In this document: positions 42,752 through 57,841 of the stretch, in pieces
How the letters are laid out: each line of letters begins with the position of its first letter
Numbering within the stretch: position 1 is the first letter of the stretch
Assembly: GCA_049297675.1 (NCBI GenBank)
Contig: JBAQUS010000004.1
Coordinates: 13,188 to 77,187, forward strand
Source: Minisyncoccia bacterium
GTDB lineage: Bacteria > Patescibacteriota > Minisyncoccia > Phycocordibacterales > DATDWN01
Length of the DNA: 64,000 bases
Direction: 5' to 3'
Translations under genes and position numbers: made by a program
The notes under the pieces: model-generated
Seen by the model: the letters and a program-made list of their open reading frames with translations, nothing else
What the model was told of the DNA's origin: nothing
The model's database searches: none

Positions 42752-44257
42752 ATGAAAACAGAAAATCAAAATTCAGAAAAGCGTGGTCCTATCGTGGCTG
42801 TAATGGGTCATATTGATCATGGCAAGTCAACTCTCCTCTCTTTCATAAGAAAAAGTACTAAGCCTCTAGATGAAGCCGGAGGTATCACTCAACACATTTC
42901 TGCCTATGAAGTCCCCCACACAGACAAGGAGGGAAAAACAAGGAATATAACTTTTCTCGATACTCCTGGTCACGAGGCGTTTTCGGGAATAAGAAAAAGA
43001 GGGGCAAAAGTGGCTGATATAGCTGTTCTTGTTGTATCTGCAGAAGATGGAGTGAAACCTCAAACAAAAGAGGCACTGGAATCCATAAAGAACAGCAAAA
43101 CTCCATTCATTGTTGCTATAAATAAAATAGACAAGCCAGATGCAAACATAGAGAGAACTAAACAAAGTCTGGCAGAAAATGAAATTTATATTGAGGGATA
43201 TGGAGGAGATGTTCCATGTGTAAACATTTCAGCGAAGAACGGTGATGGCGTTGAAGATCTATTGGATATGATTATTCTAATTTCTGAACTTGAAAATCTT
43301 TCAGGAAACCCAGATGAAAACGCAGAAGGAATAGTAATAGAAAGTAATAGAGACTCCAAAAAAGGAATCTCTTCGACTTGTATAATAATTGATGGCAAAA
43401 TTCAAAAAGGAATGTATATTACTTCAGGAACCTCGAGTTCACCGGTTAGGATTATTGAAAACTTTCTTGGAAAACAAGTTGAATCAGCTCAATTTCCAAG
43501 CCCAGTAAAAATTATCGGTTGGGATTCGCTTCCAGAGGTTGGCGATAGTTTCCATGTTTGGAAAACAAGGGAAGAAGCAAGAGAAGCTGTACAGAAAGAG
43601 GTGGAAAATAAAAGCTCTAAGTCAATAAGTGGTGAGGACCTCAAATGTGAAAATTCCATAGCAATTGTAGTCAAGGCGGATACGGGTAGCAGTCTTGAAG
43701 CTATGATTGGTGAAATAAATAAACTTAGGCTTGAAAAAATATGTCCGGAAATTATTGCCTCAGGAATAGGAAATATTTCTGAAAATGATGTGAGACTTGC
43801 CGATGGTGGAAATAAAAAGGCTATTGTTGTTGGTTTCAATGTTGATACCGATTCTCTAGCAAAAAACTTATCGGAAAGAAACGGAACTCAAATAAAAACT
43901 TTCAACATTATTTATAAAATGAGTGAATGGTTAAGTAAGCTACTTATTGAAAACACGCCAAAGGAAAAAGTCTCTGAGAGCGTTGGTGTGGCTAAAATTT
44001 TGAAGATTTTTAGTAAAGTTCGTGACAAACAGATTGTCGGTGGGAAGGTTGAGAAAGGTAAAATCGATCTTGGCTCTCAAGTAAAAATTTTAAGGAGAGA
44101 GGCTGAAATTGCAGAAGGCAAAATAAGAGAGCTTCAAAGCCAGAAAAATCAAGTCAGTGAAGTCGTTGAGGGTAAAGAATTTGGAGCAATGATAGAATCA
44201 AAAATCGAAATAGTGCCGGGAGATAGGATTGAATGTTTTATTATTGTTGAAAAATAA
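42752..44257 (+). CDS. infB: Translation initiation factor IF-2 (lacks the long N-terminal domains)
   Basis: G domain VMGHIDHGKSTL, DTPGHEAF, NKID, then the domain II-IV pattern. Confidence 0.9.
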   Translation: MKTENQNSEKRGPIVAVMGHIDHGKSTLLSFIRKSTKPLDEAGGITQHISAYEVPHTDKEGKTRNITFLDTPGHEAFSGIRKRGAKVADIAVLVVSAEDGVKPQTKEALESIKNSKTPFIVAINKIDKPDANIERTKQSLAENEIYIEGYGGDVPCVNISAKNGDGVEDLLDMIILISELENLSGNPDENAEGIVIESNRDSKKGISSTCIIIDGKIQKGMYITSGTSSSPVRIIENFLGKQVESAQFPSPVKIIGWDSLPEVGDSFHVWKTREEAREAVQKEVENKSSKSISGEDLKCENSIAIVVKADTGSSLEAMIGEINKLRLEKICPEIIASGIGNISENDVRLADGGNKKAIVVGFNVDTDSLAKNLSERNGTQIKTFNIIYKMSEWLSKLLIENTPKEKVSESVGVAKILKIFSKVRDKQIVGGKVEKGKIDLGSQVKILRREAEIAEGKIRELQSQKNQVSEVVEGKEFGAMIESKIEIVPGDRIECFIIVEK

Positions 44258-44580
44258 TGAGTAACAGAAATCAAAGACTAAGTGAAATTCTAAGAGATTT
44301 AGGTGCCCGTTTTCTGCTTCTTAATGGAAACAAATCCTCGCTTTTAACCGTGACAAAATTGGAATTAACAAGGGATGGAAAAAATGCTACTATTTTCTTT
44401 ACGGTTTTTCCAAATAGTTTTGAAAAAACTGCTCTTGAGTTTGCCAAGAGAAAAAGAAGTGATTTTAGAGAATTCGTTAAGGAAAATTCAAAACTAGGAC
44501 ACCTCCCCCAGTTTGATTTTGAAATTGATCTAGGAGAGAAAAACCGTCAAAAAATTGACGGATTATTAAATGAAAAATGA
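44257..44580 (+). CDS. rbfA: Ribosome-binding factor A
   Basis: RLSEILRDLGARFLLL...LTVTKLELTRDGKNATIFF. The ATGA overlap with infB couples the two genes. The gene ends in TGA. Confidence 0.75.
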   Translation: MSNRNQRLSEILRDLGARFLLLNGNKSSLLTVTKLELTRDGKNATIFFTVFPNSFEKTALEFAKRKRSDFREFVKENSKLGHLPQFDFEIDLGEKNRQKIDGLLNEK

Positions 44581-44650
44581 CCTAGTCGCCAAGTGGTAAG
44601 GCAAAGCTCTGCAAAAGCTTTATACGGCGGTTCGATTCCGCCCTAGGTCT
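44579..44650 (+). tRNA. tRNA-Cys (anticodon GCA)
   Basis: Hand fold: GACCTAG/CTAGGTC acceptor, AAGCT-CTGCAAA-AGCTT anticodon arm, GGCGG-TTCGATT-CCGCC T arm. It starts inside the rbfA stop codon. Confidence 0.85.
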
Positions 44651-44719
44651 CCCTAAAACATTTACACAGTAAGTGTTTGGGTGAACAATTCATCCAGAGA
44701 GTTGTTGTAACCAAATTTT

Positions 44720-44801
44720 GCTCGGGTGGCGGAACTGGTATACGCGTTCGACTTAAAATCGAATCCCGAAAGGGGTATGGGTTCGATTCCCATCCCGAGC
44801 A
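44720..44801 (+). tRNA. tRNA-Leu (anticodon TAA)
   Basis: GCTCGGG/CCCGAGC acceptor, TTCGA-CTTAAAA-TCGAA anticodon arm, long variable arm, ATGGG-TTCGATT-CCCAT T arm. Confidence 0.85.
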
Positions 44802-44850
44802 CAAAATTGAAATAAACTAAAATTAATGTTATAAATTTAAAGTAAAATTT

Positions 44851-44923
44851 GCGCCTATAGCTCAGCTGGTAGAGCAGATCCCTCTTAAGGATAAGGTCCC
44901 AGGTTCGATCCCTGGTGGGCGCA
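44851..44923 (+). tRNA. tRNA-Lys (anticodon CTT)
   Basis: GCGCCTA/TGGGCGC acceptor, GCTC-AGCTGGTA-GAGC D arm, CTCTTAA anticodon loop, CCAGG-TTCGATC-CCTGG T arm. Confidence 0.85.
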
Positions 44924-45119
44924 CAAGCCGAAATAATCTAAACTGCTTTAGATTATTTCGGACTTGTGCGCAACCAGAATATACCTTTAGGTGATTCTGG
45001 TTGAGGTTTCGGGCTTGTGCGTTATTAAAACATGTTTACTAAATAGTTTGAATCGTGGTTTCAAATTTGTGTGTGAAAGTAAGATAGCAATATAATGTTT
45101 TAGTTTCAAGTTAACAATT

Positions 45120-45203
45120 GGGCGAGTGGCGTAACAGTAGCCGCGCCAGTCTTAGGAACTGGTCCCGTAAGGGGTGGAGGTGCGATTCCTCTCTCGCCCA
45201 CCA
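45120..45203 (+). tRNA. tRNA-Leu (anticodon TAG), atypical D and T loops, CCA encoded
   Basis: GGGCGAG/CTCGCCC acceptor, perfect CCAGT-CTTAGGA-ACTGG anticodon arm, long variable arm. The D loop lacks GG, and the T loop is TGCGATT rather than TTCGA.. . Confidence 0.6.
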
Positions 45204-45490
45204 ATAAGGAACTAAAGGGTTCTGAATGCGAACCCAAGCGGAACGCCCGAAGGGCGTGCCAAGGATTTTCGCCTGATTCTGCAAGAGAATTCGGGAATTT
45301 TGGTGTGCAAGCGTGCAAGGTTTTTTCGTCGAGACGCAGGTTCGAGCCAAAGATTTCTTTGGCATAGACCTTTTTAGTAAAAAGATCTGAATCAGAAGCG
45401 ATTCTGTCCAATGATTCCGCGTCTTTTAGCCATTGTTGGAAAGGTGCGAGCCAATCATTCTACTTGTGTGAAAGAGAGGTCATTTCTCAT

Positions 45491-46277
45491 CTGTCAAACA
45501 TCCGATGTTTGACAGTAAGTTAGGGGTAGATTATTACCGAAAATGTTAAAACTTTTTATACTTCAAAAGTTTTGGTGTCAGCTTTTACCCCGCTATTTTT
45601 TACAAATTTATAATATTCATATTTATCCTCAAATTGGTCTAATACTACTTCCCTTTTTAATATTTCCTTCCAACGATTTTCTGTAACGTAATCCTGATAG
45701 CTAGACCACTCATATTTTTCTGGATTATTACTCCAATGTGAAAGCTCTTTTGGATTTAAATGAACATACGCAGATAAATGTAGTAGTTGTTCATTACTTT
45801 CAACATGAACTGCTTTATACGGACCTTCAAAAAGATGCCCCGAAATTTTATATTTAGTATTGAAGTATTTTGTATACGAGTTAAGTACACGTTGCATATA
45901 TTTCCCAGTTCCACCTTCTTCATTTTCACGAACTATTAGATGAAAATGGTTAGTCATCATCGCAAAAGAAACTAGGTCAACGTATCTTTTCGAAATTATC
46001 TTTTCGTAATCATCACTGTTAATGTCAAACATCCGATGTTTGACATAATTCGAGATCATTCTTGAAACTTGAGGAAAAATAACATTTGCTTGAAAGTATA
46101 AAATGAGAAATAAAAATCTAATTCTATCTCTATCATCCTTGAAGATGATTTTCTTCCCAACTCCCCGATTATATATATGATAGTGTTCCCCAATTTCAAT
46201 ATTATCTCTTCTCATAACCTCTCATCCTACATGGACAACTATCCATCTGTCAAACATCGGATGTTTGACAGATGGAT
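45491..46277 (-). mobile_element. RAYT/IS200-like unit 1: Y1 gene bracketed by copies of the palindrome tgtcaaacatc-N-gatgtttgaca
   Basis: Palindromes at 45491-45515 (12+c+12), 46022-46046 (inside the CDS) and 46241-46277 (18+g+18). The centre base is complemented in the third copy. Confidence 0.6.
45556..46215 (-). CDS. HUH/Y1 tyrosine transposase-like protein (REP-associated, IS200-like domain)
   Basis: HYHIYNRGVGK, HUH motif TNHFHLIV and the catalytic-Tyr region LSAYVHLNP. Confidence 0.75.
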   Translation of the reverse strand: MRRDNIEIGEHYHIYNRGVGKKIIFKDDRDRIRFLFLILYFQANVIFPQVSRMISNYVKHRMFDINSDDYEKIISKRYVDLVSFAMMTNHFHLIVRENEEGGTGKYMQRVLNSYTKYFNTKYKISGHLFEGPYKAVHVESNEQLLHLSAYVHLNPKELSHWSNNPEKYEWSSYQDYVTENRWKEILKREVVLDQFEDKYEYYKFVKNSGVKADTKTFEV

Positions 46278-46367
46278 AAGATCGATTATTAGAAAGGCTT
46301 GTGATTTTTTTAAAATCGATCTTGTTGCAAATAACGGCTTAATGGTGGGGGTTTTTTGACGACACCC

Positions 46368-46401
46368 TTGACTTGACTTTTGGATTTAATTGTGATAGAA
46401 T
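46368..46401 (+). promoter_or_regulatory. Consensus sigma70-type promoter of the GC-rich cassette
   Basis: TTGACTTGACT (overlapping -35 boxes), then a 17-nt spacer, then TAGAAT (46396-46401) preceded by tgtga. Confidence 0.5.
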
Positions 46402-46499
46402 GGTGAGCAGAACGGGAGCGGCAATTCTTGCCCCTTTCGTCGCTCCTTGACACTCTAGTTTTTAGTTTACAAGCGCTTAAATGCGCAGAAGAGGTTAGC

Positions 46500-48038
46500 A
46501 TGTTTTACACTATCGCAATTTCCGTTCTCGTTGCAGTGACAATCTCGGTCCTGATCGTCGTCGGTTGGCTTATCTTCCGTGTCGTACAGACACGGAGGAG
46601 GACACCAGTCATTCATGATTGGGCGCGGAGGGATGATAGTCGCGAGACGACACCCTCCCCGACTCCTACCACGACATCCGGAATTGATGTCGACCTCACA
46701 CTGAATCCTCCCCGCCATACTCCGAAAGGAAATAGCGGAAGAGAACCCGAACCGTTGCCTCCATGTAAATGGAAAAAAGGCACGTTTCGTATCATCTACT
46801 GGGCGGTAATAATTCCGCTCGGAATGATATCTGTCTTCGTTCTGGAGTGGGGTATCCTATCGGGTCTGCCACTCACGTGGAATACCCTGTTGGAATTCAA
46901 CGCAACTTCAGTTGGGCTGACCCTTGTTGTTCTCTGGGTAGCCTACTTCTTGGACACATTCAAGATCGTCAAGTTCAATGAACTCGGCGGTCGTGTGGTA
47001 CTTGGTAGTTTCGAGTCCTACTCTGACGGGATAACTCTCGCACCGAGATGGATTACCGATCTGGTCAAGGTAACGAGAGCAACTGAAGAACTTGATCAAC
47101 CTCACAGTGACCCGTCAAAAATTTTCTGGGGAGACCTAAGCAAACTTCCAGACGGGAAAATCCCGGACGGTATGGTACTACCAATTCGTGTGCCATTCCT
47201 CCAGAGGTCAAGCGATGAAGACTTCGAAGTTCGCTGGCCACTTGAAACAGGAGAGGTCAAAACCAGAATTACAAAGGGCTATGACCTTCTTAGTGCAACG
47301 GATGCTCCTGTCGAGTATTCGATCGGAATCAGATTCATCGACATCCAACGTGTTATCGTTCGACTCAGGTCACTCAAAGCAGCCTACGACTTGGCAACAG
47401 ACTATGCAGAGACGCTCATAACGGGCACTTTGCAGAAAATGTCCGCTGCCGAAGCCCAAGTACTGAAACAGGAAATTTCAGTACATCTTGAGGAACAGAC
47501 GGACAACCGTGTTTTCCAATCGTACGGCTTCGTGATCGACTTCGTGACTTTGAAGTCAATCGGGACTTCGCACACAATCGCGGAATCGCGAGCGCAGGCG
47601 GCAGCAGCTGTCAACCTTGCGAATAAAACGGTTAGAGACGCAAAAGCTACAGCTAAGGCAACCGAACTTCAAGGTGCTTCTGTGGCTGGAGCTGAATTGG
47701 CACTACTCAACGCGAGGTCAGTAGGACTACGCAACATCGTCGACGCTGCGACTTCACGGTCAGGGGGAGTTGAACTCGCCAAAGCTATGGAAGCGGCACG
47801 CGCTATTCAGTTTGGCGCAGATTCGACAGTTGTTGTCCCAGGTGGAAACACTGGGGACGGTCTCGGACTCTTTGGCGCAGCGGTCGGTACAGCAATTAGT
47901 GCTTCGGCCGCACTTGGGAGAAAACCAGCTGGTGAAAAAGCTCTAACAGAGACCCAACCAGCACAACCAACAACTACTACAACACCCCCTGCACGTGGCG
48001 ACAGACGTGGCCATAAGAAAGGGGGTAAGAGGAGTTAG
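46500..48038 (+). CDS. Multi-TM SPFH/band-7 (prohibitin/HflK-like) domain protein with Ala-rich coiled C-terminus and basic P/T tail
   Basis: Start set at MFYTIAIS (GAGG 5 nt upstream). FKIVKFNELGGRVVLGSF ... YSIGIRFIDIQRVI ... YGFVIDFVTLKSIGTSHTIAESRAQAAAA fits the SPFH pattern. The DNA is GC-rich. Confidence 0.6.
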   Translation: MFYTIAISVLVAVTISVLIVVGWLIFRVVQTRRRTPVIHDWARRDDSRETTPSPTPTTTSGIDVDLTLNPPRHTPKGNSGREPEPLPPCKWKKGTFRIIYWAVIIPLGMISVFVLEWGILSGLPLTWNTLLEFNATSVGLTLVVLWVAYFLDTFKIVKFNELGGRVVLGSFESYSDGITLAPRWITDLVKVTRATEELDQPHSDPSKIFWGDLSKLPDGKIPDGMVLPIRVPFLQRSSDEDFEVRWPLETGEVKTRITKGYDLLSATDAPVEYSIGIRFIDIQRVIVRLRSLKAAYDLATDYAETLITGTLQKMSAAEAQVLKQEISVHLEEQTDNRVFQSYGFVIDFVTLKSIGTSHTIAESRAQAAAAVNLANKTVRDAKATAKATELQGASVAGAELALLNARSVGLRNIVDAATSRSGGVELAKAMEAARAIQFGADSTVVVPGGNTGDGLGLFGAAVGTAISASAALGRKPAGEKALTETQPAQPTTTTTPPARGDRRGHKKGGKRS

Positions 48039-48040
48039 TC

Positions 48041-49396
48041 ATGCCTATCGTCGCAATCGTTATCGTACTCCTCTTTCTCGTCTTCGGACGAAGGAAAGGA
48101 AACGATAGCAAATACATTCGAGAGTCAGAGGTCGTTGATACCAAGCCAAATGGTAAAACAGAGACGGAAAAACACACTCTGTGGTGGCACGTCGGCCACT
48201 ACAAACTCGTGTGGCTACAGCACTGGAGGAGGTCAACAACCCTCCGTGTCTCCGCCGGACTGCTTGCTTTCGGGCTGGGAGTCTGGATCTTCCCTCTAAC
48301 GAGGGAATGGTGGAGTTCGCAGTGGGTTAGCTTCGGCCTTTACCTAATTGCCGCTCTGGCCATTATCTGCCTTGGGTTCATGTTGGGCCCGGCGCAGAAA
48401 GTGCCGTTCGAGTACAGGCTCCGGCCTTTATTGCTCATCATTGGAATTGCGATCGCAGTCTACGGACTCGGTGCGAACACCAAGTTCGGTCAGAGCACCT
48501 GGTCGTGGATCGCCTCTCACTTCGGGAGAACAGATGGAAACATCGGTCTAACTCCAGAGGAGACAGCTGACCTACCGGACGGGTTCGTCGAGAGCGACAA
48601 TCCGAACCACTGGTCAAACCACGTCACCGATGAAAATCGTGATGTGGTCAACATGGTCCGGGCTGCCGTCCAGAGCGAACTTGTCCCAACCCATTGGGAC
48701 CTCGCCATGCAGATCTGCGGTATGGAATCGGCATGGTTTCGTCAGTTCGATGAGGACGGTAATGTTCTCAGAAACGTCAAAAACAATGACGGGTCAATCG
48801 ACTACGGAGTCTGTCAGATCAACTCCATATGGATGAAAAAGTCCAAGGAGTTGGGAGATGGTTTCCGGATCGACGGGCCGGCTGACGAAAACATTCGAAT
48901 GGCCATGTGGATCTGGACGAATCCAGAAACACGTGGGCCACGCGAGTGGACCGGTACGTACAACACAGCTCTTGCTGTTGTCCGCAATGCGCGGACAACG
49001 CCAGAGACTGTGAACGCACGTCGAACTCCAGAGAGGTCACCGGCTGAACAGGAGACTGTTCAGGCTGGGATCGCACTGGTCTCACAAACTGAGCCAATTC
49101 ACCAGCAACGCAACCCACAAAGAGAGGTGTCTGTCACAGCCATGTTTCCAGGATGGGTCACCGACAAGTCCTCCATGACCTGCGACCTCGAAGAGGACGC
49201 AGAAATCGAGGCGGTCGGTGAGCCTGGAATATTTTACTGGAGTGACACAAACTTCAGTACGAACATCCTAAAGCCTGGAGAAACTGCTTCACTTGCTGGA
49301 TTCAAATGCGTTGCAGTCAGATACTTTTCCCCAACGTTTGGGGGAAAACTGACTGAGGGTCAGAGCCCTTACGCAATCGTGAGACGATACAAATAA
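48041..49396 (+). CDS. Membrane-anchored lytic transglycosylase (SLT domain) with a C-terminal domain of unknown function
   Basis: Four to five N-terminal TMs. ICGMESAWFRQFDEDGNV ... DYGVCQINSIW contains the SLT catalytic E-S and the Q-I-N motif. AGAGGAG SD. The ATG lies 2 nt after the upstream stop. Confidence 0.7.
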   Translation: MPIVAIVIVLLFLVFGRRKGNDSKYIRESEVVDTKPNGKTETEKHTLWWHVGHYKLVWLQHWRRSTTLRVSAGLLAFGLGVWIFPLTREWWSSQWVSFGLYLIAALAIICLGFMLGPAQKVPFEYRLRPLLLIIGIAIAVYGLGANTKFGQSTWSWIASHFGRTDGNIGLTPEETADLPDGFVESDNPNHWSNHVTDENRDVVNMVRAAVQSELVPTHWDLAMQICGMESAWFRQFDEDGNVLRNVKNNDGSIDYGVCQINSIWMKKSKELGDGFRIDGPADENIRMAMWIWTNPETRGPREWTGTYNTALAVVRNARTTPETVNARRTPERSPAEQETVQAGIALVSQTEPIHQQRNPQREVSVTAMFPGWVTDKSSMTCDLEEDAEIEAVGEPGIFYWSDTNFSTNILKPGETASLAGFKCVAVRYFSPTFGGKLTEGQSPYAIVRRYK

Positions 49397-49430
49397 ACTA
49401 GAGTTAGAGAGGAGTACACATGTTCGCATG

Positions 49431-49466
49431 AGGCCGTTACCCGATAAGGGAACGGCCTCTTTTTAT
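49431..49466 (+). terminator. Rho-independent terminator of the GC-rich cassette
   Basis: aggccgtt...aacggcct stem followed by ctttttat. Confidence 0.6.
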
Positions 49467-49492
49467 GCATGATGATATATAAAATTTCTCTA

Positions 49493-49525
49493 CAGAAAAC
49501 CGCTCAAGTTGTGAGCGGTTTTCTG
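49493..49525. terminator. Bidirectional 14-bp hairpin cagaaaaccgctca-agttg-tgagcggttttctg
   Basis: Perfect arms, verified. It lies between the convergent cassette and the pilin operon. Confidence 0.6.
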
Positions 49526-49536
49526 TGACTAACTTG

Positions 49537-49827
49537 TTAATAGTTTCGTATTATAGCGTTGACTGCTGCGTTATTAGGTGCCACCCCGAAAGTGTTAAGG
49601 ACGAAGTGAACCAACCCATAAACCGAAAACATTATGACCATTCCCACTATTCCCCAGACCATGGAATCTCTGGACTCCTTTCTGGTATTTCCTTTATCGT
49701 CTGCATCAGAAGATAAAAACTTGATGGCCCCCCATACAAAGTACAGAAAGGCTATAGCAAACATGAGGAAAATCAATGGATTCAGTATAACGTTTGCTAC
49801 ATTACGTAGAAAAGGAACAATAGTCAT
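49537..49827 (-). CDS. VirB2/TrbC-like mini-pilin paralogue a (no signal peptide; possibly truncated)
   Basis: Core YFVWGAIKFLSSDADDKGNTRKESRDSMVWGIVGMV (TM-loop-TM). It lacks the leader present in the other six copies. Confidence 0.5.
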   Translation of the reverse strand: MTIVPFLRNVANVILNPLIFLMFAIAFLYFVWGAIKFLSSDADDKGNTRKESRDSMVWGIVGMVIMFSVYGLVHFVLNTFGVAPNNAAVNAIIRNY

Positions 49828-49852
49828 GTACTAGTTTCGTTAACTAGACTGA

Positions 49853-50206
49853 TTACAGACCTGTAACTGTTGGAACTGTACCAGTTGTGATGTTTTGAAC
49901 ACCAAATGTAGATTGTAACCATGCAACCAATCCGTAGATTGAGATCATGACTGCTATTGCAATCACACCCCAAATCATCTGGTTTCTACCTGCCTCCTGT
50001 GCCTTAGGATCCCCAGCTGAACGTAGGAATGTAACCAAGCCCCAGAAGAAGAACACTATCGCTAGACCGAAAACTATAGGGATAAGTGTTCTAACTGTTG
50101 TTGCAATGAAAGTAAGAAGTGCTTGCAAACCTGTTAAGTTTGGAGTCTGGGCGAAAGCCAAGACTGGAGCAAGAAAAGATCCTACTGAAATGACAATTTT
50201 TTTCAT
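49853..50206 (-). CDS. VirB2/TrbC-like mini-pilin paralogue b
   Basis: Leader ...PVLAFAQ. Core FFFWGLVTFLRSAGDPKAQEAGRNQMIWGVIAIAVM. Confidence 0.6.
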   Translation of the reverse strand: MKKIVISVGSFLAPVLAFAQTPNLTGLQALLTFIATTVRTLIPIVFGLAIVFFFWGLVTFLRSAGDPKAQEAGRNQMIWGVIAIAVMISIYGLVAWLQSTFGVQNITTGTVPTVTGL

Positions 50207-50311
50207 TTTTTTGTTAATATTACGATTAATAATGCTATTATAGTACTTTTTAAAAATAATGCAAGTCCTCGGTCAAATAGACTCTGTGGATTAGTTTACT
50301 TCCAGTTATAC

Positions 50312-50689
50312 TTAGTTTGGACTAAAACATGTTTCAAAGTTAGTACAAGACTCAATACTAAAGACATTTCCAAGAAATGCCACTATTCCAAATAATGATA
50401 GAATGATGAACATGCCTATAATACCCCATAACATCCTTTGTTTTCCTTCCTCACGGGATTTAGAATCACCAGAATTTAGTACAAATTGTGCCACACCCCA
50501 TATAAAGAAAAGCAAAGCAACACTGCCTAGGATTGGTACTAATATATCAACTAAATCCTTAAATTCCTGAGCAAAAGTCTGAATAGTTTGAGCCGAAAGA
50601 ATGGTTGGAAAAATAGACCAAGACAAAGACACTACAAAAAATATTCTGCTGGTGTAACCATGAGAAAATATAAATTTTCTTACCATCAA
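50312..50689 (-). CDS. VirB2/TrbC-like mini-pilin paralogue c
   Basis: Leader ...ILSAQ. Core FFIWGVAQFVLNSGDSKSREEGKQRMLWGIIGMF. The C-tail has a Cys pair. Confidence 0.6.
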   Translation of the reverse strand: MMVRKFIFSHGYTSRIFFVVSLSWSIFPTILSAQTIQTFAQEFKDLVDILVPILGSVALLFFIWGVAQFVLNSGDSKSREEGKQRMLWGIIGMFIILSLFGIVAFLGNVFSIESCTNFETCFSPN

Positions 50690-50711
50690 AATAGTTAATG
50701 TTACAAAATTA

Positions 50712-51071
50712 TTATAAAGAAGTACAGATCATTGACCCGATTGGACACCCTGTTTGTGGTATCCCTAGAGCAGTATTTATAAATGCCACTATTCCGAATA
50801 TAGACATTATTACGAACATACCAACTACACCCCATATCATCCTTTGTTTTCCCTCTTCTCTCAGTTTGGTATCGCCAGCATTTAGAATAAATGTAGCTAC
50901 ACCCCACATAAAGAACATAAAAGCCAAACCGAAGACGATGGGTATAAGAAGTCGAACTATATTTCCGAATTCAGTCACTAGTGTTCTTACCACGGCTAGA
51001 CTCTGGGCAAAAATAAAAACAGGAAATAAAAGTTGTGGTGCATAAATTAAAAATTTTAGATTTTTCTTCAT
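50712..51071 (-). CDS. VirB2/TrbC-like mini-pilin paralogue d
   Basis: Leader ...FIFAQ. Core FFMWGVATFILNAGDTKLREEGKQRMIWGVVGMF. The C-tail has a Cys pair. Closest to paralogue c at the DNA level. Confidence 0.6.
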   Translation of the reverse strand: MKKNLKFLIYAPQLLFPVFIFAQSLAVVRTLVTEFGNIVRLLIPIVFGLAFMFFMWGVATFILNAGDTKLREEGKQRMIWGVVGMFVIMSIFGIVAFINTALGIPQTGCPIGSMICTSL

Positions 51072-51140
51072 ATTTTTTATTTATTTCTATTTATTACTAT
51101 CAGTTATGCATTATAATACATACAACACAAAAGTACAAGG

Positions 51141-51524
51141 CTAAAATCTAATGAAAACAAAGGCAGGATCAGCATCAGTAGAGCCATTCAACCCTACAGC
51201 GTTTATAACAACACCAATGATTGCTCTTACAGATAGTAGGACAAATAAAGCAATTGTTCCCCAAAGCATATATTTTCTTCCATTTTCTATTTCCGTTTTA
51301 TTTCCAGATCGAATAAAAAATTTAGAAAGACCCCAAATAAATACTAAAACAGCTAAAGAAAGAAAGGCTGGCAGGATTGTGTTGTAAATAAGTTCTCCTG
51401 TGGTGAAGGCGGCATCTCCAAATGTGCCACCCGGAGGTATAAGTTGGGCATAAGCAATAATCGGAAAAACACTGACAACAAGGTTTGAAATGAACCTGTA
51501 GTGCTTTAAAAAAAAAGTTTTCAT
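51141..51524 (-). CDS. VirB2/TrbC-like mini-pilin paralogue e
   Basis: Leader ...IIAYAQ. Core VFIWGLSKFFIRSGNKTEIENGRKYMLWGTIALF. Confidence 0.55.
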   Translation of the reverse strand: MKTFFLKHYRFISNLVVSVFPIIAYAQLIPPGGTFGDAAFTTGELIYNTILPAFLSLAVLVFIWGLSKFFIRSGNKTEIENGRKYMLWGTIALFVLLSVRAIIGVVINAVGLNGSTDADPAFVFIRF

Positions 51525-51536
51525 TATTGATAAATT

Positions 51537-51899
51537 TTAACCAACAGTGATTAGTTGACTAACCGTATTTCTAACCAGCTCTGATATGGCCACAGCTCCG
51601 AGGAGAATTCCTCCGCCTATGAGAGCCCAGAGAAGTCTCTGTTTTGCCTCGCCAAGTTTTTTCTCATTACCTTGGGCAGTTACAAAAGTAAAGCCTGCAT
51701 AAATAATGTACATTACAACCACCACGGCTCCTATAGGCAAAACCACGTTGTTAAGGAGTGCAGTTAAAATATCAATGAGATTGCTTCCTGCTTTGGTGGC
51801 CGGATTGGTAATGGTAATATTTTGAGCGAACAAAACTACTGGCAAAATAATATTAGCGAGTATCAGAAGAATTTTTGTGTATTTTTTATATATTTTCAT
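51537..51899 (-). CDS. VirB2/TrbC-like mini-pilin paralogue f
   Basis: Leader ...VVLFAQ. Core IYAGFTFVTAQGNEKKLGEAKQRLLWALIGGG. Confidence 0.55.
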   Translation of the reverse strand: MKIYKKYTKILLILANIILPVVLFAQNITITNPATKAGSNLIDILTALLNNVVLPIGAVVVVMYIIYAGFTFVTAQGNEKKLGEAKQRLLWALIGGGILLGAVAISELVRNTVSQLITVG

Positions 51900-51903
51900 A
51901 TTA

Positions 51904-52314
51904 TTAACCTAGAAAAGTTGGAATATTATCATCTAATAATGCTGTGGTGATAAGTCTAACTAACACCCAGGCGATTATTATAATAGCAATACCCTGTACA
52001 ACTTTAAGAAGCATACCCGCGGCTTTTGCCCGCTCCGAAGCACTCTCTCCACCCATCATAAACCTAAAGCCAGCCCAAGCGATAACTATAACAGAAAAAC
52101 CTAGGGCAAACTTAGTTCCTTCGTTTGTCACTCGTCTTACGGCTCTTATCAGGTCATCAAATGTACACTCTCCTGCTATCCCACCAACTCCGGGACACTC
52201 GTAAACAAACTGGGCATGGCTTACTAGTGGTGTAAAAAGAAAAAGAAAAACAAGAAACAGGAGAATTTTTGATGCCAAATTATTTAAAAATGTACTTCTC
52301 ATTTTGTTAAACAT
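51904..52314 (-). CDS. VirB2/TrbC-like mini-pilin paralogue g (most divergent)
   Basis: Leader ...LVSHAQ. The mature N-terminus has CPGVGGIAGEC. Core IAWAGFRFMMGGESASERAKAAGMLLKVVQGIAII. Its start overlaps the stop of the upstream gene. Confidence 0.5.
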   Translation of the reverse strand: MFNKMRSTFLNNLASKILLFLVFLFLFTPLVSHAQFVYECPGVGGIAGECTFDDLIRAVRRVTNEGTKFALGFSVIVIAWAGFRFMMGGESASERAKAAGMLLKVVQGIAIIIIAWVLVRLITTALLDDNIPTFLG

Positions 52315-53603
52315 TATGATTTGATTAGAGCAGTCAGTTCTGTTTCCGCTCTGTTTAAGGCATCAGATGCTCTAGACCTTCCACTAGTTATGCTCTCAAT
52401 CATATCACGAAACAGATTTGAAGTTGCCTGTGGTTCAGGATCAATCCACGACCTGGAGATTAAGGCAGAATCATAGAATACTTGCATGTGAGCCTCTGGA
52501 GGCTTCACAGAAAGCATGTCTCTTCTTACAGGAGGTAGGTTTGTAATGCCACCTATTCCCTTTATAGCTTCGACCTCTGTCAGAGCGTTTAGGGCTATAA
52601 AGGAGGCCTGGATATTTTTGGATTGCTTTACAATGGATATACCGTAGAGATGTCCGAAAACTACTTTCTTTTTGCTATCTCTTATTTGTGGAACCGAAGT
52701 GACACCGTAATTTAGATTTGGATTTTTTTGTTGAATACCAACTAGCTCACTAGCAAAACCAAAATAAATAGCCAAATTTCCGGAGAGAAAGAAGTTGGAT
52801 GAAGATGGAAGGGACCTATTCCAGGAATATGAGACAAGGTTTGGATTAGAAAATTGGATGTAAAAATCTGTTGCTGACTGGCTCGGAGTCCTAGGATATC
52901 CGAACTGAAGGTTAAGCACTGTATCAAGCCCATTTTCCTCCCTCTGTATTATTGGTGTTCCAGCTTGGAGCATGAGCATTATGAGTAACTCCTTGGCACT
53001 TGTGATATTTCTCCATTCACCGAAAGCTATAGTTGATTGAGAAATATTGGCCTGACCGTCTTTTTTGGTGATCTTTGGAACCAAGTCTGGAATCTCGTCC
53101 CAGTATTTAGGAGGGGACGCAATAAAGTTGCTGGAGAATAAGTCTCTATTCCAATACATAACCATGGGATCAATAATGAATGGCAAAGCTAATATGCCTT
53201 CTGGAGTAAGAAACAATTCCCCTTCTTCTATAAACCTGTCCTTGAAATCCCTCTCTGGATAAAATTCCGATGGTATTGGATAAAGTTTATTTCTATTTTT
53301 GTAAACCAAATCCTCTCTAAGAATAACTATGTCTGGCCCTCTACCTTCTGCCAGAGCCTCGACAAAGTCTCTATCAAAATCTGATGGGTCCTTTCTGACA
53401 TACATCACTCTTATGTTTTTATTTCCAGAAAGTGACGAAGCTATATAAGCATTTGTAAATGCATCGTCCGAAATAGTTCCCCATGCGACTAGACCAGCAG
53501 ATACATTTGCTGTACCGGTATTTTTACTCAAGGCAAAAACCATAATACCTGCAACTATGGCCACAGAGAAGACGGCTATGACAGCTATTTTAAACGTACT
53601 CAT
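52314..53603 (-). CDS. Membrane-anchored extracellular solute-binding-fold protein (orphan; no permease or ATPase nearby)
   Basis: N-terminal TM, then ...PDIVILREDL...ALPFIIDPMVMYWNRDLF...PPKYWDEIPDL..., an SBP family-1-like pattern. Confidence 0.55.
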   Translation of the reverse strand: MSTFKIAVIAVFSVAIVAGIMVFALSKNTGTANVSAGLVAWGTISDDAFTNAYIASSLSGNKNIRVMYVRKDPSDFDRDFVEALAEGRGPDIVILREDLVYKNRNKLYPIPSEFYPERDFKDRFIEEGELFLTPEGILALPFIIDPMVMYWNRDLFSSNFIASPPKYWDEIPDLVPKITKKDGQANISQSTIAFGEWRNITSAKELLIMLMLQAGTPIIQREENGLDTVLNLQFGYPRTPSQSATDFYIQFSNPNLVSYSWNRSLPSSSNFFLSGNLAIYFGFASELVGIQQKNPNLNYGVTSVPQIRDSKKKVVFGHLYGISIVKQSKNIQASFIALNALTEVEAIKGIGGITNLPPVRRDMLSVKPPEAHMQVFYDSALISRSWIDPEPQATSNLFRDMIESITSGRSRASDALNRAETELTALIKS

Positions 53604-53640
53604 ATTCGCTGATTATAACAAGAAATCATTTTTTCTAAAA

Positions 53641-54168
53641 TTACATCTTCTTAAAGATTAATCCGTAGTGATGTGCTCCGGCGGAAATTTCCCTGTCTAT
53701 ACTAAAGCCCTGCTTTTCAAAAAGCTCTTTGGCTTTTGGTTTTTTAACAACATCGATCGGTTTTGGACCAATTCCACCGAATGAATCTGACCAGTCTATT
53801 ACCAATACCCTTCCCCCGGGTTTTAAAATTCTTTTGGCCTCTTTTATTGCCCCGACTTTATCATCTAGCTGAAAAAGAAGATTGCAAATAAAAACCAGAT
53901 CAACAGAAGAATCCCTAAGTTTTGCTCCATTTGGCTTTTCGACATTACCCCATACTACTTCTATGTTATAAAGGCCTTCTTTTGTTGAGTTATTTTTCAA
54001 TCTGGTCAGTAGCTCTTTATCTACGTCAATAGCGTAAACCCTACCAGTTGAAATGAGCGCCCTTGAAGCAGCCATGGAGTAATGTCCCGAGCCAGAACCA
54101 AAATCTGCAATATCCATCCCGGCCTGTATTCCACACTGCTCTATGTTTTTTATTGGATCGGAGAACAT
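53641..54168 (-). CDS. Class I SAM-dependent methyltransferase
   Basis: Motif I IADFGSGSGHYS and post-I/II LKPGGRVLVIDW. Confidence 0.75.
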   Translation of the reverse strand: MFSDPIKNIEQCGIQAGMDIADFGSGSGHYSMAASRALISTGRVYAIDVDKELLTRLKNNSTKEGLYNIEVVWGNVEKPNGAKLRDSSVDLVFICNLLFQLDDKVGAIKEAKRILKPGGRVLVIDWSDSFGGIGPKPIDVVKKPKAKELFEKQGFSIDREISAGAHHYGLIFKKM

Positions 54169-54341
54169 TGGCTAGTTATGAAGTTGAAAGTAAAAAGTTA
54201 GAAGTAATACAAACAGTATACTAACAAAATTACGTGCTATTTATTATACAACCAAAAAACCAAATCAACACTATAGTTGTTCACAAATTAGAGTTTAAAT
54301 TTTGTTAATTTTATATAAGGACTCAATATAAAAAACCTGTT

Positions 54342-55076
54342 TTACTAGGGTAACCCTAGTAATTACTAGTAACTATCTTTATATTCTAACCAATCAGTTA
54401 TATTATCATTAAAATCAAAGATACTTGAAAAATACTCAGGGAAATTAGTTTTGTCTAAAATCATACCCGCTTCCCTCTTTTGTCCGACATAATCTAAATA
54501 ACTAGAACAATCATAATTCGATAGAAATTTTTTAGCTTTACTAATGTTTTTTATTCCAGATTCTTTCCAGTCATATTCAATTAATTTAACTGGATTAAGA
54601 TGAATGTAAGAAAATAAATATTTCAAATATTCATCAGAGTCAGCATGTTCTGCTTTATATGTACCCTGAAACAACGAACCCACTCTATCATTTAATTTAT
54701 TAAAGTAGGTAGAATAGCCCGTAGTCAATTTTTCCATAAACATAGCTGTACCGCCCTCAACAATTTCTCTAACAAGAATATGAAAATGATTTGGCATTAA
54801 AACCCATGCTCCTATTGCAACGAGTTGCTCGCCCCTGTTAATATCTTTCAATGGTAAGTCTATTGTTGTGCTGTACCTATAAGGAAGAGTATTGTTTGCA
54901 AGATATAAGAGTCTAATAAATCTCTTATAATCATTCTGTGAAATAAAAATATCGCGCTTTTCAACTCCTCGATTATATATATGGTAAAACTCGCCTTCAG
55001 ATATGACTATTTTTCTTTGCATAGAAGCACTATATACTAACAACTCTCATCTTACTAGGGTAACCCTAGTAAGATG
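54342..55076 (-). mobile_element. RAYT/IS200-like unit 2: Y1 gene bracketed by the palindrome ttactagggt-a-accctagtaa
   Basis: 21-nt copy at 54342-54362 and an extended 29-nt copy (catcttactagggt a accctagtaagatg) at 55048-55076. Confidence 0.6.
54366..55022 (-). CDS. HUH/Y1 tyrosine transposase-like protein (second, divergent paralogue)
   Basis: FYHIYNRGVEK, HUH motif PNHFHILV and Tyr region LFSYIHLNP. Start moved to MQRKIVIS by analogy with paralogue 1. Confidence 0.75.
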   Translation of the reverse strand: MQRKIVISEGEFYHIYNRGVEKRDIFISQNDYKRFIRLLYLANNTLPYRYSTTIDLPLKDINRGEQLVAIGAWVLMPNHFHILVREIVEGGTAMFMEKLTTGYSTYFNKLNDRVGSLFQGTYKAEHADSDEYLKYLFSYIHLNPVKLIEYDWKESGIKNISKAKKFLSNYDCSSYLDYVGQKREAGMILDKTNFPEYFSSIFDFNDNITDWLEYKDSY

Positions 55077-55133
55077 AAATTTTGATACCATGAAGCCCTG
55101 AGACTTCATGGTCCCAGGGCTGTTACCTGCTTT

Positions 55134-55343
55134 TTATTCTTCCTTCTCAGGTTTTTGTGGTGTGAAAGTGACAGAACCTGGGAGTTGACCTGAGGCACGT
55201 CTTTGCTGACGCACGGCTTCTTTGTAAAGTAGACATTGACGGTCAGCCTCAGCAGCATCACCACGTTCCCGTGCTTCTGACGCTCTGCACATACGAGTGA
55301 GCCACTCTGGGTTTGGTTCTGGATCAGTACCACGATTCGCCAT
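55134..55343 (-). CDS. Hypothetical 69-aa helical protein; GC-rich orphan
   Basis: gaggaggttaatcATG start. Sequence MANRGTDPEPNPEWLTRMCRASEARERGDAAEADRQ... A hairpin gccctgaga...tcccagggc lies downstream. A hand-counted 60-nt line (55201-55260) is 50% G+C. Confidence 0.5.
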   Translation of the reverse strand: MANRGTDPEPNPEWLTRMCRASEARERGDAAEADRQCLLYKEAVRQQRRASGQLPGSVTFTPQKPEKEE

Positions 55344-55372
55344 GATTAACCTCCTCAAATTTTCCACATACA

Positions 55373-57841
55373 TTATAAACAAATAAGTGAGGCAATACTA
55401 TCTCCTTCGCGGAGTTTCATGATACGGACACCTTGAGTTTGACGACCAAGAACTGGGATTTCTTTGCTGTCCACTCGGATGACTTGTGATTTTTTAGATA
55501 TTGCCACAATTTCACCTTCAACACTAGCAAAAACTTTAGCGGAAATCAGACTACCTGTTTTTGGAGTAACTTTGGCAGTTTTTATTCCCGAGCCACCGCG
55601 GTTTTGGATTTTGTATTCATCAATATCTGTGCACTTGCCATACCCGTTTGCAGAGATGACCATAACGTTTGCATTGTCTAGATCATTTGGAACTGTCTCA
55701 GCAGAAATAATCTCATCACCCTTTTTTAGTTTAATAGCCCGCACTCCCATAGCGGTTCTTCCCATCTCACGAATATCTGATTCTTTGAAATGAATGGCCT
55801 GTCCCTTGCTTGTTACAACGATAACTGTATCTTTTTTTCTAGTAAATGAAGCTGAGATGAGTGCGTCACCGTCATCTAGCTTTATTGCAATAATACCCGA
55901 AATTCGTACATCGTGAAAACTAGCAGTGGCTACTTTTTTTACTGAGCCTTGTTTAGTAACCATCATTGTTGAAGACTCTTCGCCCTTAACTTTCTTTGGC
56001 ATTGGCAAAATAGAAGTGATTTTCTCACCTTCTGAAAGTGGTAAAAAGTTCATGATTGATTTCCCACGAGTAGCCCTGCGTCCCTCTGGAATGTCATACA
56101 TTTTTGTCTGATAAACTTTTCCTCTGTTAGTAAAGAAAAGCAAATCGGAGTGAGTAGAAGTTATGAGTAGATTTGTAACAAAGTCTTCTTCTTTTGTGTC
56201 CAGGTCAATCACCCCGACTCCCCCACGTTTTTGTTTTCTAAACTCATCTGGATTGGTTCGCTTTATGTATCCACCAGCGGTCAATACTAGCGCGTTTTCC
56301 TCATCAGGAACGAGATCTTCGACGGAAAGTACTTGTGCTCCACCCTTTATTATTTTTGTGCGCCTCTCGTCACCATATTTTTCCTTAATATCTTCCGACT
56401 CTTTTTTTATTATTAAAATAACTTTCTTTGGAGAGTTTAATATGGACTTTAGTTCCTCAATCATAATCTGCACTGCCTTGAGTTCATCCTCTATCTTCTT
56501 TCTCTCAAGTCCGGCCAAACGTGAAAGCTTCATTTCCAAAATAGCATTGGCTTGAATTGACGAGAATTTAAACTCTTTCATCAATCTCATGTGAGCCTCG
56601 GGAGTATCTTTGGAAGATTTGATGAGTTTAATAATGGCATCAATATGATCGAGTGCTTTTTTCAATCCCAAAAGAATATGCTCTCTTTCCAGTGCTTTTT
56701 TGAGATCAAACTCTGTTCGTCTTTTTATTACTGTTACTCTGTGAGAAATAAATTCCTCCAAAATATCTTTTAGGGAGACTGTCTCTGGTATCCCTTTTAC
56801 GAGACCAACCATATTGTAATGAAAAGTGTCTTCGAGTTGAGTATGTTTATATAAATAATTCAGAACTGTTTGAGGATGAGCTGTACCTTTTAACTCAATA
56901 ACTATTCTTATATCTTTTGCAGACTCATCACGAATGTCTTTTATTCCCTCGACTTTTTTCTCCTTGTGAAGATCAACTATTTTTAATATTAGGTCAGCCT
57001 TGTTTACTCTAAATGGTAGCGAAGTAATAACGATTTGATACTGTCCAGATTTTGTCTCAACAACTTCTGCCATACCACGCACAACTACACCACCTTTTCC
57101 TGAAGAATAAGCATGATGCATGTCCTTAGCTCCAAAAGCTATTGCTCCTATCGGAAAATCTGGACCTTTGACGAACTGCAGAAGATCCTCTGTTGTAGCA
57201 TCTTTATTATCTGCCAAATGGATAACCGCATCCATCACTTCGTTTAGGTTATGAGGCGGAATATTTGTTGCCATTCCAACGGCAATACCTAGTGTGCCGT
57301 TTAGAAGCAAGTTAGGTACAGCGGTTGGCAAAACTTTCGGCTCCTTTTTTGTGCCGTCGTAATTTGGCACAAAATCAACAGTTTCTTTTTCAATATCGTG
57401 CAGAAGTTCGGATGCCAATTTAGTCATTTTTGCCTCCGTATAACGCATGGCTGCCGCATTGTCTCCATCAATCGAACCAAAATTTCCCTGACCTAATATG
57501 AGAGGGTAACGCATAGTAAAATCCTGCGCCATCTTAACCATTGAATCATAAACTGCTACATCACCATGCGGGTGATAATTTCCCAAAACTTCTCCGACTA
57601 CCGCAGCAGATTTTCTGGATTTGGCACCAGATGTCAATCCGAGTTCTGACATAGCAAAAAGAATTCTCCTATGCACAGGTTTTAGTCCATCACGAACATC
57701 TGGTAATGCACGATCGGTAATAACAGACATTGCATAATCTATAAAAGATGTCTTCATCTCAGAAGTTATTTCCTGCGAGATAACATTTTTTACAGCTAAA
57801 GCCGAATTGGTCTCTTCTGGATTATTTTTTTTACCTGACAT
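55373..57841 (-). CDS. gyrA: DNA gyrase subunit A
   Basis: [10 protein letters not shown] active-site Tyr region, YHPHGD and C-terminal beta-pinwheel repeats. Confidence 0.95.

Follow-up and report, generated by a model that had tools for sequence, protein, structure and literature searches.

A conserved cell-envelope gene cluster beside gyrA in a Minisyncoccia bacterium and its probable local turnover

Arrays of VirB2-like pilin genes are widespread in Patescibacteria (PMC12102498) and are among the few features of the phylum that have been shown to be essential for epibiotic growth, a pilin series being essential in Southlakia epibionticum (PMC10633639). We analyzed a 64-kb window (the whole stretch of DNA under study; contig JBAQUS010000004.1 of GenBank assembly GCA_049297675.1) from a Minisyncoccia bacterium, in which such an array lies in an interval of ~10 kb between a tRNA cluster and gyrA. 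The clade to which this genome belongs couples the array with genes for a solute-binding protein (SBP), a methyltransferase (MT) and a convergent operon for an SPFH protein and a putative lytic transglycosylase (SLT). A preliminary description of this DNA had listed rbfA, four tRNAs, two units resembling RAYTs (tyrosine transposases associated with repetitive extragenic palindromes, REPs), the SPFH/SLT genes, the pilin/SBP operon, MT, a 69-aa open reading frame (ORF) and gyrA, all of which are present in that arrangement, and had interpreted everything between the tRNAs and gyrA as an accessory island. We arrive at a different reading: with a probability of roughly 80%, this is the place on the chromosome where a Paceibacterota clade conserves a cell-envelope gene cluster, the interval was not built by insertions, and it undergoes local turnover of three kinds, exchange of RAYT units and a hypervariable SPFH–SLT cassette among them.

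To compare the interval between species, we used GyrA as an anchor and mapped the proteins of the window onto 80 species-level loci (GyrA 67–88% identical), each a contig from a metagenome-assembled genome (MAG), one per species. Relatives with related GyrA are Patescibacteria MAGs (Paceibacterota, Parcubacteria and Zambryskibacteria). Closer contigs, beyond the 80-locus set, have gyrA identities of 91–96% (for example, L089 and L091; L numbers label fetched loci or contigs of relatives and metagenomes, and P numbers homologous proteins). Two contigs, L084 and L089, probably belong to one organism, as they come from the same assembly and carry abutting SBP fragments; together they serve as the closest genome for divergence figures. 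The window itself is AT-rich (about 36% GC, with 32% in intergenic DNA) and carries housekeeping genes along its length (topA, relA/spoT, serS, clpB, infB, rbfA, gyrA, S1 and hisS).

Conserved gene order beside gyrA

The order lactB–h122–gyrA–(RAYT)–MT–SBP–pilins–SLT–SPFH, in which lactB is lactamase-B-like and h122 is a small gene, recurs in about 80 species-level loci. From the lactamase-B-like gene through the small gene, gyrA, MT and SBP to the six to eight pilin genes, this order is kept wherever a contig extends far enough, and from the last pilin gene to the tRNAs nearly all loci carry two ORFs oriented as in the window. A RAYT-like gene separates gyrA from MT in about 12 loci, and MT is absent from one distant subgroup of relatives. 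Overall, 10 of the 14 genes in the interval stand in conserved order across about 80 relatives, with MT, SBP, pilins and SLT/SPFH keeping both order and orientation beside gyrA; about 8 of the 10 kb (MT, SBP, the pilin array and SLT/SPFH) is core synteny of the clade. The conserved right flank is gyrA itself (55373–57841, minus strand; annotated by Pfam in L001), and the conserved left flank is formed by rbfA (44257–44580, plus strand; PF02033, E = 4e-11) and infB (42752–44257), which are also located beyond the tRNAs in relatives.

Two convergent transcription units make up the interval, with a pair of terminators between them. One comprises gyrA, the small protein gene, MT, SBP and seven VirB2-like pilin genes, and the other, driven by its own predicted promoter, encodes SPFH and the membrane-anchored lytic transglycosylase. 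The pilins, the SBP, the wall-cutting enzyme and the SPFH scaffold may act jointly at the cell surface.

The gene order shared with relatives refutes the island for most of the interval, and we consider it very improbable that serial insertions at a tRNA-proximal hotspot produced a 10-kb block in which all genes are accessory. What speaks for such an island is the position next to tRNA genes, the two transposase-like genes, a 2.9-kb GC-rich block and the variable content, among relatives, of the tRNA spacers and of the gap between SPFH and the tRNAs. Besides the synteny, it is contradicted by the conservation of the tRNAs and by codon usage, which is host-like in MT, SBP, the pilins and the small ORF. 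In addition, we found no integrase- or recombinase-like ORF in the window, and a 16–25-nt search for attachment (att) repeats, allowing 2–5 mismatches and covering all four tRNA 3' ends in direct and inverted orientation, gave zero matches in the window, in agreement with the preliminary description.

Parts of the earlier interpretation hold on a smaller scale. The edges of the cluster are soft: the distance from gyrA to MT ranges from 13 to 1914 nt among relatives and that from SPFH to tRNA-Leu from 157 to 2131 nt, tRNA spacers vary as well, and these gaps carry assorted small genes. Variable slots of up to about 2 kb are thus what survives of the hotspot idea. Repeated insertion likewise applies to the two RAYT-like units, about 1.7 kb in all, which are lineage-specific, but not to the core synteny that makes up the bulk of the interval.

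The seven paralogous VirB2-like (T4SS_pilin) genes (49537–52314, minus strand) all match the families PF18895 or PF04956 (TrbC): four exceed the PF18895 cut-off, pil6 exceeds the TrbC cut-off, and pil5 (25.8 bits) and pil7 (23.2 bits) fall slightly under the PF18895 cut-off of 26.6. Each pilin has a signal peptide and two transmembrane helices, and sequence divergence among the seven is high. Within the array, pil3 and pil4 resemble each other most, with a shared 164-nt stretch at 74% identity (50375–50538 and 50781–50944); the other paralogues are far less alike and correspond one to one with positional orthologues in relatives. A separate observation concerns pil2 (49853–50206), which is 95% identical to L084 7344–7697 with a synonymous divergence (dS) of 0.46, compared with saturated values of at least 2.4 for pil1, gyrA and MT, which points to either a recently recombined tract or constraint on synonymous sites within the pilin array.

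Upstream of the pilins, the SBP gene (52314–53603, minus strand; SBP_bac_1, E = 3e-14) has a stop codon that overlaps the start of the first pilin gene, and it is kept in nearly all relatives (41–62% identical; 84% in L084). Its core neighbor encodes a class I SAM-dependent MT (53641–54168, minus strand; Methyltransf_11/31) that is 93% identical in L089 and 42–72% identical in most relatives. PADLOC and PHROGs searches returned only a generic methyltransferase-domain match and a marginal PHROG of unknown function for the second RAYT-like protein (E = 0.005). Next to gyrA, the gene for a 69-aa small protein (55134–55343, minus strand) has a GGAGG ribosome-binding site and a terminator hairpin (55088–55121, minus strand) within an element spanning 55088–55343. 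Previously regarded as a GC-rich orphan, this gene is GC-rich at codon positions 1 and 2 only, with a host-like GC content at third positions (GC3, 0.31; z = −0.3), and homologues that are 71–91% identical lie directly after gyrA in L089, L090 and L091; it is native and restricted to close relatives.

Might the MT–SBP–pilin–SLT–SPFH cluster be the fixed remnant of an ancient integrated conjugative element that bore a type IV secretion system (T4SS)? VirB2-like pilins and a VirB1-like transglycosylase are components of the T4SS type, an origin of the Patescibacterial T4SS in monoderm conjugation machinery has been proposed (PMC12102498), and the cluster is intact where its outer flanks differ (L084 and L085). 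However, the window holds no VirB4- or VirD4-sized ORF, relaxase or integrase (its ORFs of at least 500 aa are TopA, ClpB, IF-2, SPFH and GyrA), and codon usage outside the cassette is host-like, which together make this origin unlikely. With no VirB4-sized ORF in the 64-kb window, the array also lacks linkage to virB4, virB6 or trsD.

The hypervariable, GC-rich SPFH–SLT operon

The operon that faces the pilin genes is the fastest-changing and compositionally oddest part of the conserved neighborhood and, as such, a candidate module for host-interaction specificity. A promoter scan predicted TTGACT-17-TAGAAT with an extended −10 element (46373–46401, plus strand), and the segment comprising the promoter and a GC-rich 5' untranslated region (UTR; 46350–46499, plus strand; 5'UTR 50% GC versus 32% for intergenic DNA) has 79% nucleotide identity to L084 and 77–90% identity over 31–54 nt to at least 11 relatives. 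The first gene (46500–48038, plus strand; 51% GC) was assigned by its family profile to membrane SPFH (stomatin/HflK-like) proteins. Single SPFH and SLT sequences stayed below threshold in Pfam and NCBIfam, the former with only E = 0.23, so family profiles were required. That for SPFH matched stomatin, QmcA, HflK/C and prohibitin in the PDB (E = 3e-15 to 1e-7), and the homologue in L084 carries PF01145, to which the L118 homologue is only a weak match. The second gene (48041–49396, plus strand; 53% GC; SLT/lysozyme-like core at about 48557–49016) probably encodes a membrane-anchored, lysozyme-like lytic transglycosylase. It has the catalytic Glu-Ser and GVxQIN (G-x-x-Q-I-N) motifs, conserved in 13 of 14 aligned members; its family profile matches C-type lysozymes (E = 3e-5), and the homologue P0003 carries PF01464. 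Both products have N-terminal membrane segments, and the C-terminal domain of SLT is variable and beta-rich. Two terminator hairpins (49430–49526; fold z = −8.9) separate the convergent operons, at 49430–49459 (followed by a T run) and 49493–49526, one serving the SPFH–SLT operon and the second the pilin operon.

Close homologues of either protein are scarce. A search of 5.8 billion proteins gave three non-self matches for SLT and zero for SPFH, and a HMMER scan of 1.84 billion representatives found 92 SPFH relatives, the best of which was 36% identical. Iterated profile searches identified positional orthologues, with SPFH matching the distal ORF only (29 loci) and SLT the proximal ORF only (25 loci). 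The homologues P0003, P0004 and P0008, which are all those whose context was looked up, lie beside pilin arrays.

Divergence of the operon far exceeds that of its surroundings. Identity to L084/L089 is 91% for gyrA, 93% for MT, 84% for SBP and 52–95% for the pilins, compared with 43% over the core for SLT and none detectable by BLAST for SPFH. At the nucleotide level, homology to L084 comprises the promoter/5'UTR (79%) and the SLT core (72%) and resumes in the pilins. The SPFH protein of the window matches those of L008, L025, L029, L031 and L049 (gyrA 71–85%) better than those of its closest genomes and, across all pairs, cassette identity scarcely tracks gyrA identity. In comparison with the closest relative, synonymous sites are saturated (dS of about 2.5 or higher), which makes dN/dS ratios unreliable, and the cassette alignments were too divergent for pattern-based locus searches.

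The operon also stands out in composition, 46.3–49.4 kb being the sole GC-rich block in the window. Compared with expectations from its own amino acids and host codon usage, GC3 was 0.48 versus 0.30 in SPFH (z = +9.3) and 0.60 versus 0.33 in SLT (z = +12.7), and the GC excess spans the whole operon from the 5'UTR to the terminator, catalytic core included (core GC3 0.64 in the window and 0.66 in L084). The preliminary description had recognized three compositions in the interval; per-gene codon usage bears this out for the strongly GC3-rich stretch at 46.4–49.4 kb (z = +9 to +13) and, mildly, for the AT3-rich RAYT genes, but everything else is host-like and the block as a whole is not atypical. 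In relatives, the cassette is higher in GC3 than the core genes that flank it in 27 of 29 loci for SPFH (mean, +0.15) and in 24 of 25 for SLT (mean, +0.22), L084, L085 and L118 likewise showing the excess, which is uncorrelated with host GC3 across relatives. Elsewhere in the window, a NUDIX hydrolase gene (31885–32433) has the next-highest GC3 (0.45; z = +2.3 relative to gene-to-gene spread), well under the cassette and over every other identified gene. High expression was considered as a cause of high GC3 and rejected, core genes being low in GC3; two low-GC3 genes near tRNA-Trp are presumably ribosomal protein genes.

The SPFH/SLT genes thus look compositionally foreign, but this is a clade-wide trait and not the mark of a recent insertion here. 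Recent acquisition of the pair by this genome only, from a GC-richer donor, would fit its GC content (51–53% versus 36% for the window; GC3 z = +9 to +13) and the near absence of close homologues in very large databases. We nevertheless regard it as highly unlikely: the same families occupy the same slot, GC3-rich, in 24–27 other species, the promoter and the SLT catalytic core are common to relatives, in which the core is equally GC3-rich, and searches of phage, plasmid and IMG/VR sequences for a source of the cassette found no match. An assembly chimera, in which the GC-rich block came from a co-occurring organism, is suggested by an NCBI contig apparently from the same organism (L002, JBAQRY010000020.1) that stops 23 nt past the SLT stop codon, at the convergent terminators (~49419). 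We give this explanation practically no credence, as independent Logan assemblies (L001, L003 and L088) span both junctions with identical sequence and dozens of independent MAGs show this arrangement as well.

With flanking synonymous sites saturated (dS about 2.5), the GC3 excess is not the fading trace of one old import, and it needs either ongoing replacement out of an allele pool richer in GC or a local force that persists. Candidate causes are a shared allele pool, GC-biased gene conversion, which has been documented in recombining bacterial genes (PMC4450053), and selection on the transcript. One possibility is very fast vertical evolution of the cassette at its present site, with its GC3 held by a local force, either GC-biased gene conversion at a recombination hot spot or selection that acts on the codons or mRNA of this transcript. 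Conservation of the promoter and SLT core in place is consistent with this, as are the limits of the GC-rich tract, which begins at the 5'UTR and stops at the terminator, the persistent force that high GC3 needs under saturated flanking dS, and the precedent for biased gene conversion. SPFH similarity is, however, incongruent with gyrA relatedness, GC3 shows no gradient toward the neighboring pilin gene, and core genes here, those of ribosomal-protein size included, are not GC3-rich, with no evident link to expression level; we therefore hold evolution in place to be possible though doubtful.

We read the SPFH–SLT operon instead as a putative replacement-type hypervariable surface cassette. 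Identity comparisons show what such a locus is expected to have: conserved flanks, deeply divergent alleles and similarity that is decoupled from core phylogeny. Alleles would be exchanged by recombination between the conserved promoter and pilin arms, and the exchange could be driven by diversifying selection that hosts or phages impose on the wall-cutting proteins which an epibiont exposes at its surface. A tentative extension of this reading is that SPFH–SLT is a dedicated diversification cassette, in which exchange through the promoter and pilin arms or GC-biased repair keeps GC3 at 0.5–0.7 whatever the host composition, and which may determine the host range or interaction specificity of these presumed epibionts. 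If true, it would represent a GC3 island with sharp boundaries that persists in a lineage, a rarity among bacteria.

Several points weigh against a conserved cluster with a recombining cassette. In the nearest relatives (L005, L008 and L084), the gene past SPFH is not the tRNA cluster; therefore, the left junction is not universally conserved, and the SPFH/tRNA junction is a rearrangement point. Relatives are phylogenetically non-independent, and counts such as 27 of 29 overstate the number of independent events. Recombination of the cassette is something we infer from mosaic homology and incongruent similarity. GC3 does not spill into the adjoining pilin gene (+0.02 over core, P = 0.08) and its boundary is sharp, which argues against a diffuse recombination hotspot or a gradient of biased gene conversion. 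Lastly, an AlphaFold2 model of SLT from four sequences was too poor for use (predicted local-distance difference test, 41; predicted template-modeling score, 0.22).

Two side observations belong to these features. Past SPFH, L005 (19348–20826) and L008 (10438–11649) encode a pyruvate kinase fused to a histidine-phosphatase domain. The secondary structure in the SLT model, at a predicted local-distance difference test of 41, would comprise a core of helices and, after it, a C-terminal domain with seven strands.

RAYT-like units and tRNA-proximal DNA

The two RAYT-like units occupy the slots between tRNA-Leu and the SPFH–SLT promoter (unit 1) and between the small gene and MT (unit 2). Unit 1 (45483–46274, minus strand) consists of a hairpin (45488–45515), a gene (45556–46215) and a second hairpin (46244–46274), and unit 2 (54200–55086, minus strand) has the same makeup (hairpin 54342–54362, gene 54366–55022 and hairpin 55047–55077). 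Their 218–219-aa proteins, RAYT1 and RAYT2, are 38% identical to each other and reach 30.1 and 23.8 bits against Y1_Tnp (PF01797; cut-off, 23); against the curated RAYT equivalog NF047646 they score 27.8 and 40.4 bits, under the cut-off of 80. Both align with relatives and have an N-terminal HIYNRG block, an HUH motif (NHFH) and a Y(V/I)HLNP tyrosine motif, and their genes are mildly AT3-rich (z = −2.8 and −2.6). RAYT1 is on record at one place only, and an exact look-up of RAYT2 gave no record, though the gene is called in L001.

Each gene is flanked by a palindrome of its own. The unit 1 hairpin (TGTCAAACATCCGATGTTTGACA) takes the form TGTCAAACATC(C/G)GATGTTTGACA in 28-nt inverted copies on either side of the gene, and the unit 2 hairpin is TTACTAGGGTAACCCTAGTAA, with identical 21-nt palindromes in direct orientation. 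Zero such flanking matches are expected by chance, and neither palindrome has copies elsewhere in the 64-kb window. A third copy of the unit 1 hairpin lies in frame within the RAYT1 gene (46019–46046), where it reads YVKHRMFDI. This internal copy falls in a variable loop that follows the N-terminal block and precedes the HUH motif, and it is also found in RAYT1 homologues that are 50–54% identical (L098 2997–3019 and L101 5080–5102).

Breakpoints in relatives coincide with the unit edges. Compared with L089 and L091 (gyrA 91–96%), homology stops at 55086/55087 and resumes at 54199; relatives of this type share gyrA through the small gene and its terminator and then carry, between the breakpoints, a different RAYT that is 37% identical to RAYT2, in opposite orientation and with TGTCAAAGAC-type hairpins. 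Since close relatives have a different RAYT unit at the same slot, whole hairpin–gene–hairpin units have been exchanged there. More broadly, Y1_Tnp was found in 10 of 36 ORFs in the gyrA/MT slot, which make up an orthologous group (50–84% identical, except for L040 at 38–44%), and slot RAYTs in relatives have flanking hairpins that co-vary. For unit 1, homology to RAYT1-type units in unrelated contigs (L111 and L113; 68–70% protein identity) stops at 45483 and at 46272–46274, the outer edges of the hairpins. Both units are therefore real, independent, lineage-specific insertions or replacements, unit 2 replacing a different RAYT at the identical site.

The exact 23-nt unit 1 hairpin also occurs in 26 metagenome contigs (L092–L117) with GC contents of 0.33–0.54, alongside a RAYT1 homologue in nine and with none nearby in 17. 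Flanks of these contigs are unrelated, except for evident duplicates of one locus. The associated RAYT proteins are 46–70% identical, and the hairpin adjoins a tRNA gene in L099 and L114 and in several contigs lies inside long open frames reading VKH(R/P)MFD. Judging by hairpin counts from the 64-kb window and the metagenome contigs, the units appear to show REP/RAYT-like behavior at low copy number. Exchange could proceed by Y1-mediated single-strand transposition or cleavage at the hairpins, or by homologous recombination through the conserved flanks; natural competence has been documented for Saccharibacteria (PMC10633639).

On the left, ARAGORN and Rfam identified the plus-strand genes tRNA-Cys(gca) (44579–44652), tRNA-Leu(taa) (44720–44802), tRNA-Lys(ctt) (44851–44924) and tRNA-Leu(tag) (45120–45203). 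The last, earlier called atypical, indeed scores lower than the other three (49 versus 58–65 bits) yet above the Rfam threshold. The same four tRNAs adjoin rbfA–infB in 15 of 15 loci that reach rbfA (L017 with an additional Leu(cag)); this makes tRNA-Leu(tag), like the cluster as a whole, part of the clade's conserved core and not foreign. Rfam searches of the window and of 44.4–46.5 kb found tRNAs only; a weak match to the permuted transfer-messenger RNA model (E = 0.1) was dismissed. A 101-aa ORF (45106–45411, minus strand) that overlaps tRNA-Leu(tag) is probably spurious.

The non-coding stretch between tRNA-Leu(tag) and unit 1 (45204–45482; 45% GC) lies outside the RAYT1 unit. Described earlier as hairpin-rich, it shows no convincing structure: its plus strand folds no better than shuffles (z = −1.2) and its minus strand only moderately better (z = −2.95), and strong hairpins lie instead at 44919–45003, 3' of tRNA-Lys on the plus strand (two; fold z = −6.6). 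The first of these has 25 bp, with the tRNA-Lys 3' end as one arm, and is partly kept beside tRNA-Lys in L040; it may be a processing or terminator element. The stretch at 45204–45482 had no homologue among the fetched loci and no significant Rfam match.

Significance and comparison with known systems

For annotation, these results illustrate that a GC jump, transposase-like genes and nearby tRNAs do not by themselves indicate a genomic island in Patescibacteria, and that synteny across relatives can reverse the call. The SPFH–SLT operon is a tractable case for testing why a small tract stays GC-rich within a reduced genome that is otherwise AT-rich, and the hairpin-bounded RAYT-like units would extend REP/RAYT-like biology to the phylum Patescibacteria. 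While the pilin array and the RAYT-like genes are of known kinds, a clade-wide, sharply bounded, GC3-rich hypervariable SPFH–SLT operon beside a pilin array appears to be undescribed; it is absent from the one survey consulted, and no dedicated literature search was made.

Like tRNA-linked integrative islands, the interval lies beside tRNA genes and holds transposase-like genes as well as a compositionally atypical block. Unlike them, it lacks an integrase and a direct repeat of a tRNA 3' end, and its content is conserved in relatives. A closer likeness is to the VirB2-like arrays of Patescibacteria, including that of Southlakia epibionticum (PMC12102498, PMC10633639), which resemble the present one in being tandem series of small divergent paralogues (seven here) with PF18895/TrbC matches; a relaxase and coupling protein are likewise absent nearby in this locus. 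In contrast to those arrays, ours is not near virB4 and is fixed beside gyrA with SBP and MT, facing the convergent SPFH–SLT operon.

The RAYT-like units share with REP/RAYT systems (PMC3116915, PMC5581495) the HUH and Tyr motifs, the Y1_Tnp fold, a single copy per type within the window, a short palindrome of their own on both sides of the gene, an orthologous RAYT in one slot across species and solitary hairpins elsewhere. They differ in that they score far under the NCBIfam equivalog cut-off, the 64-kb window shows no over-representation of their hairpins, close relatives have swapped whole units, and one hairpin copy lies in frame within a gene. Minimal IS200/IS605 elements (tnpA only) provide a second comparison, with a Y1 HUH gene that subterminal hairpins enclose, neither a terminal duplication nor an att site and, for unit 2, hairpins in direct orientation. 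However, the units depart from that model in the size of their proteins (about 219 aa) and their RAYT-typical YxHxNP motif, in the lack of tnpB and of multiple identical copies in the window, and in the inverted hairpins of unit 1.

The cassette, finally, is reminiscent of O-antigen- and capsule-type hypervariable loci, with which it shares a fixed position between conserved flanks, envelope-related products and alleles that are deeply divergent or non-homologous and decoupled from core phylogeny. Unlike such loci, it comprises two genes only, its families and architecture are constant, and its promoter and catalytic core are retained. Replacement loci of the O-antigen and capsule type are usually AT-richer than the genome, whereas the SPFH–SLT cassette is GC-richer than the genome in which it resides.

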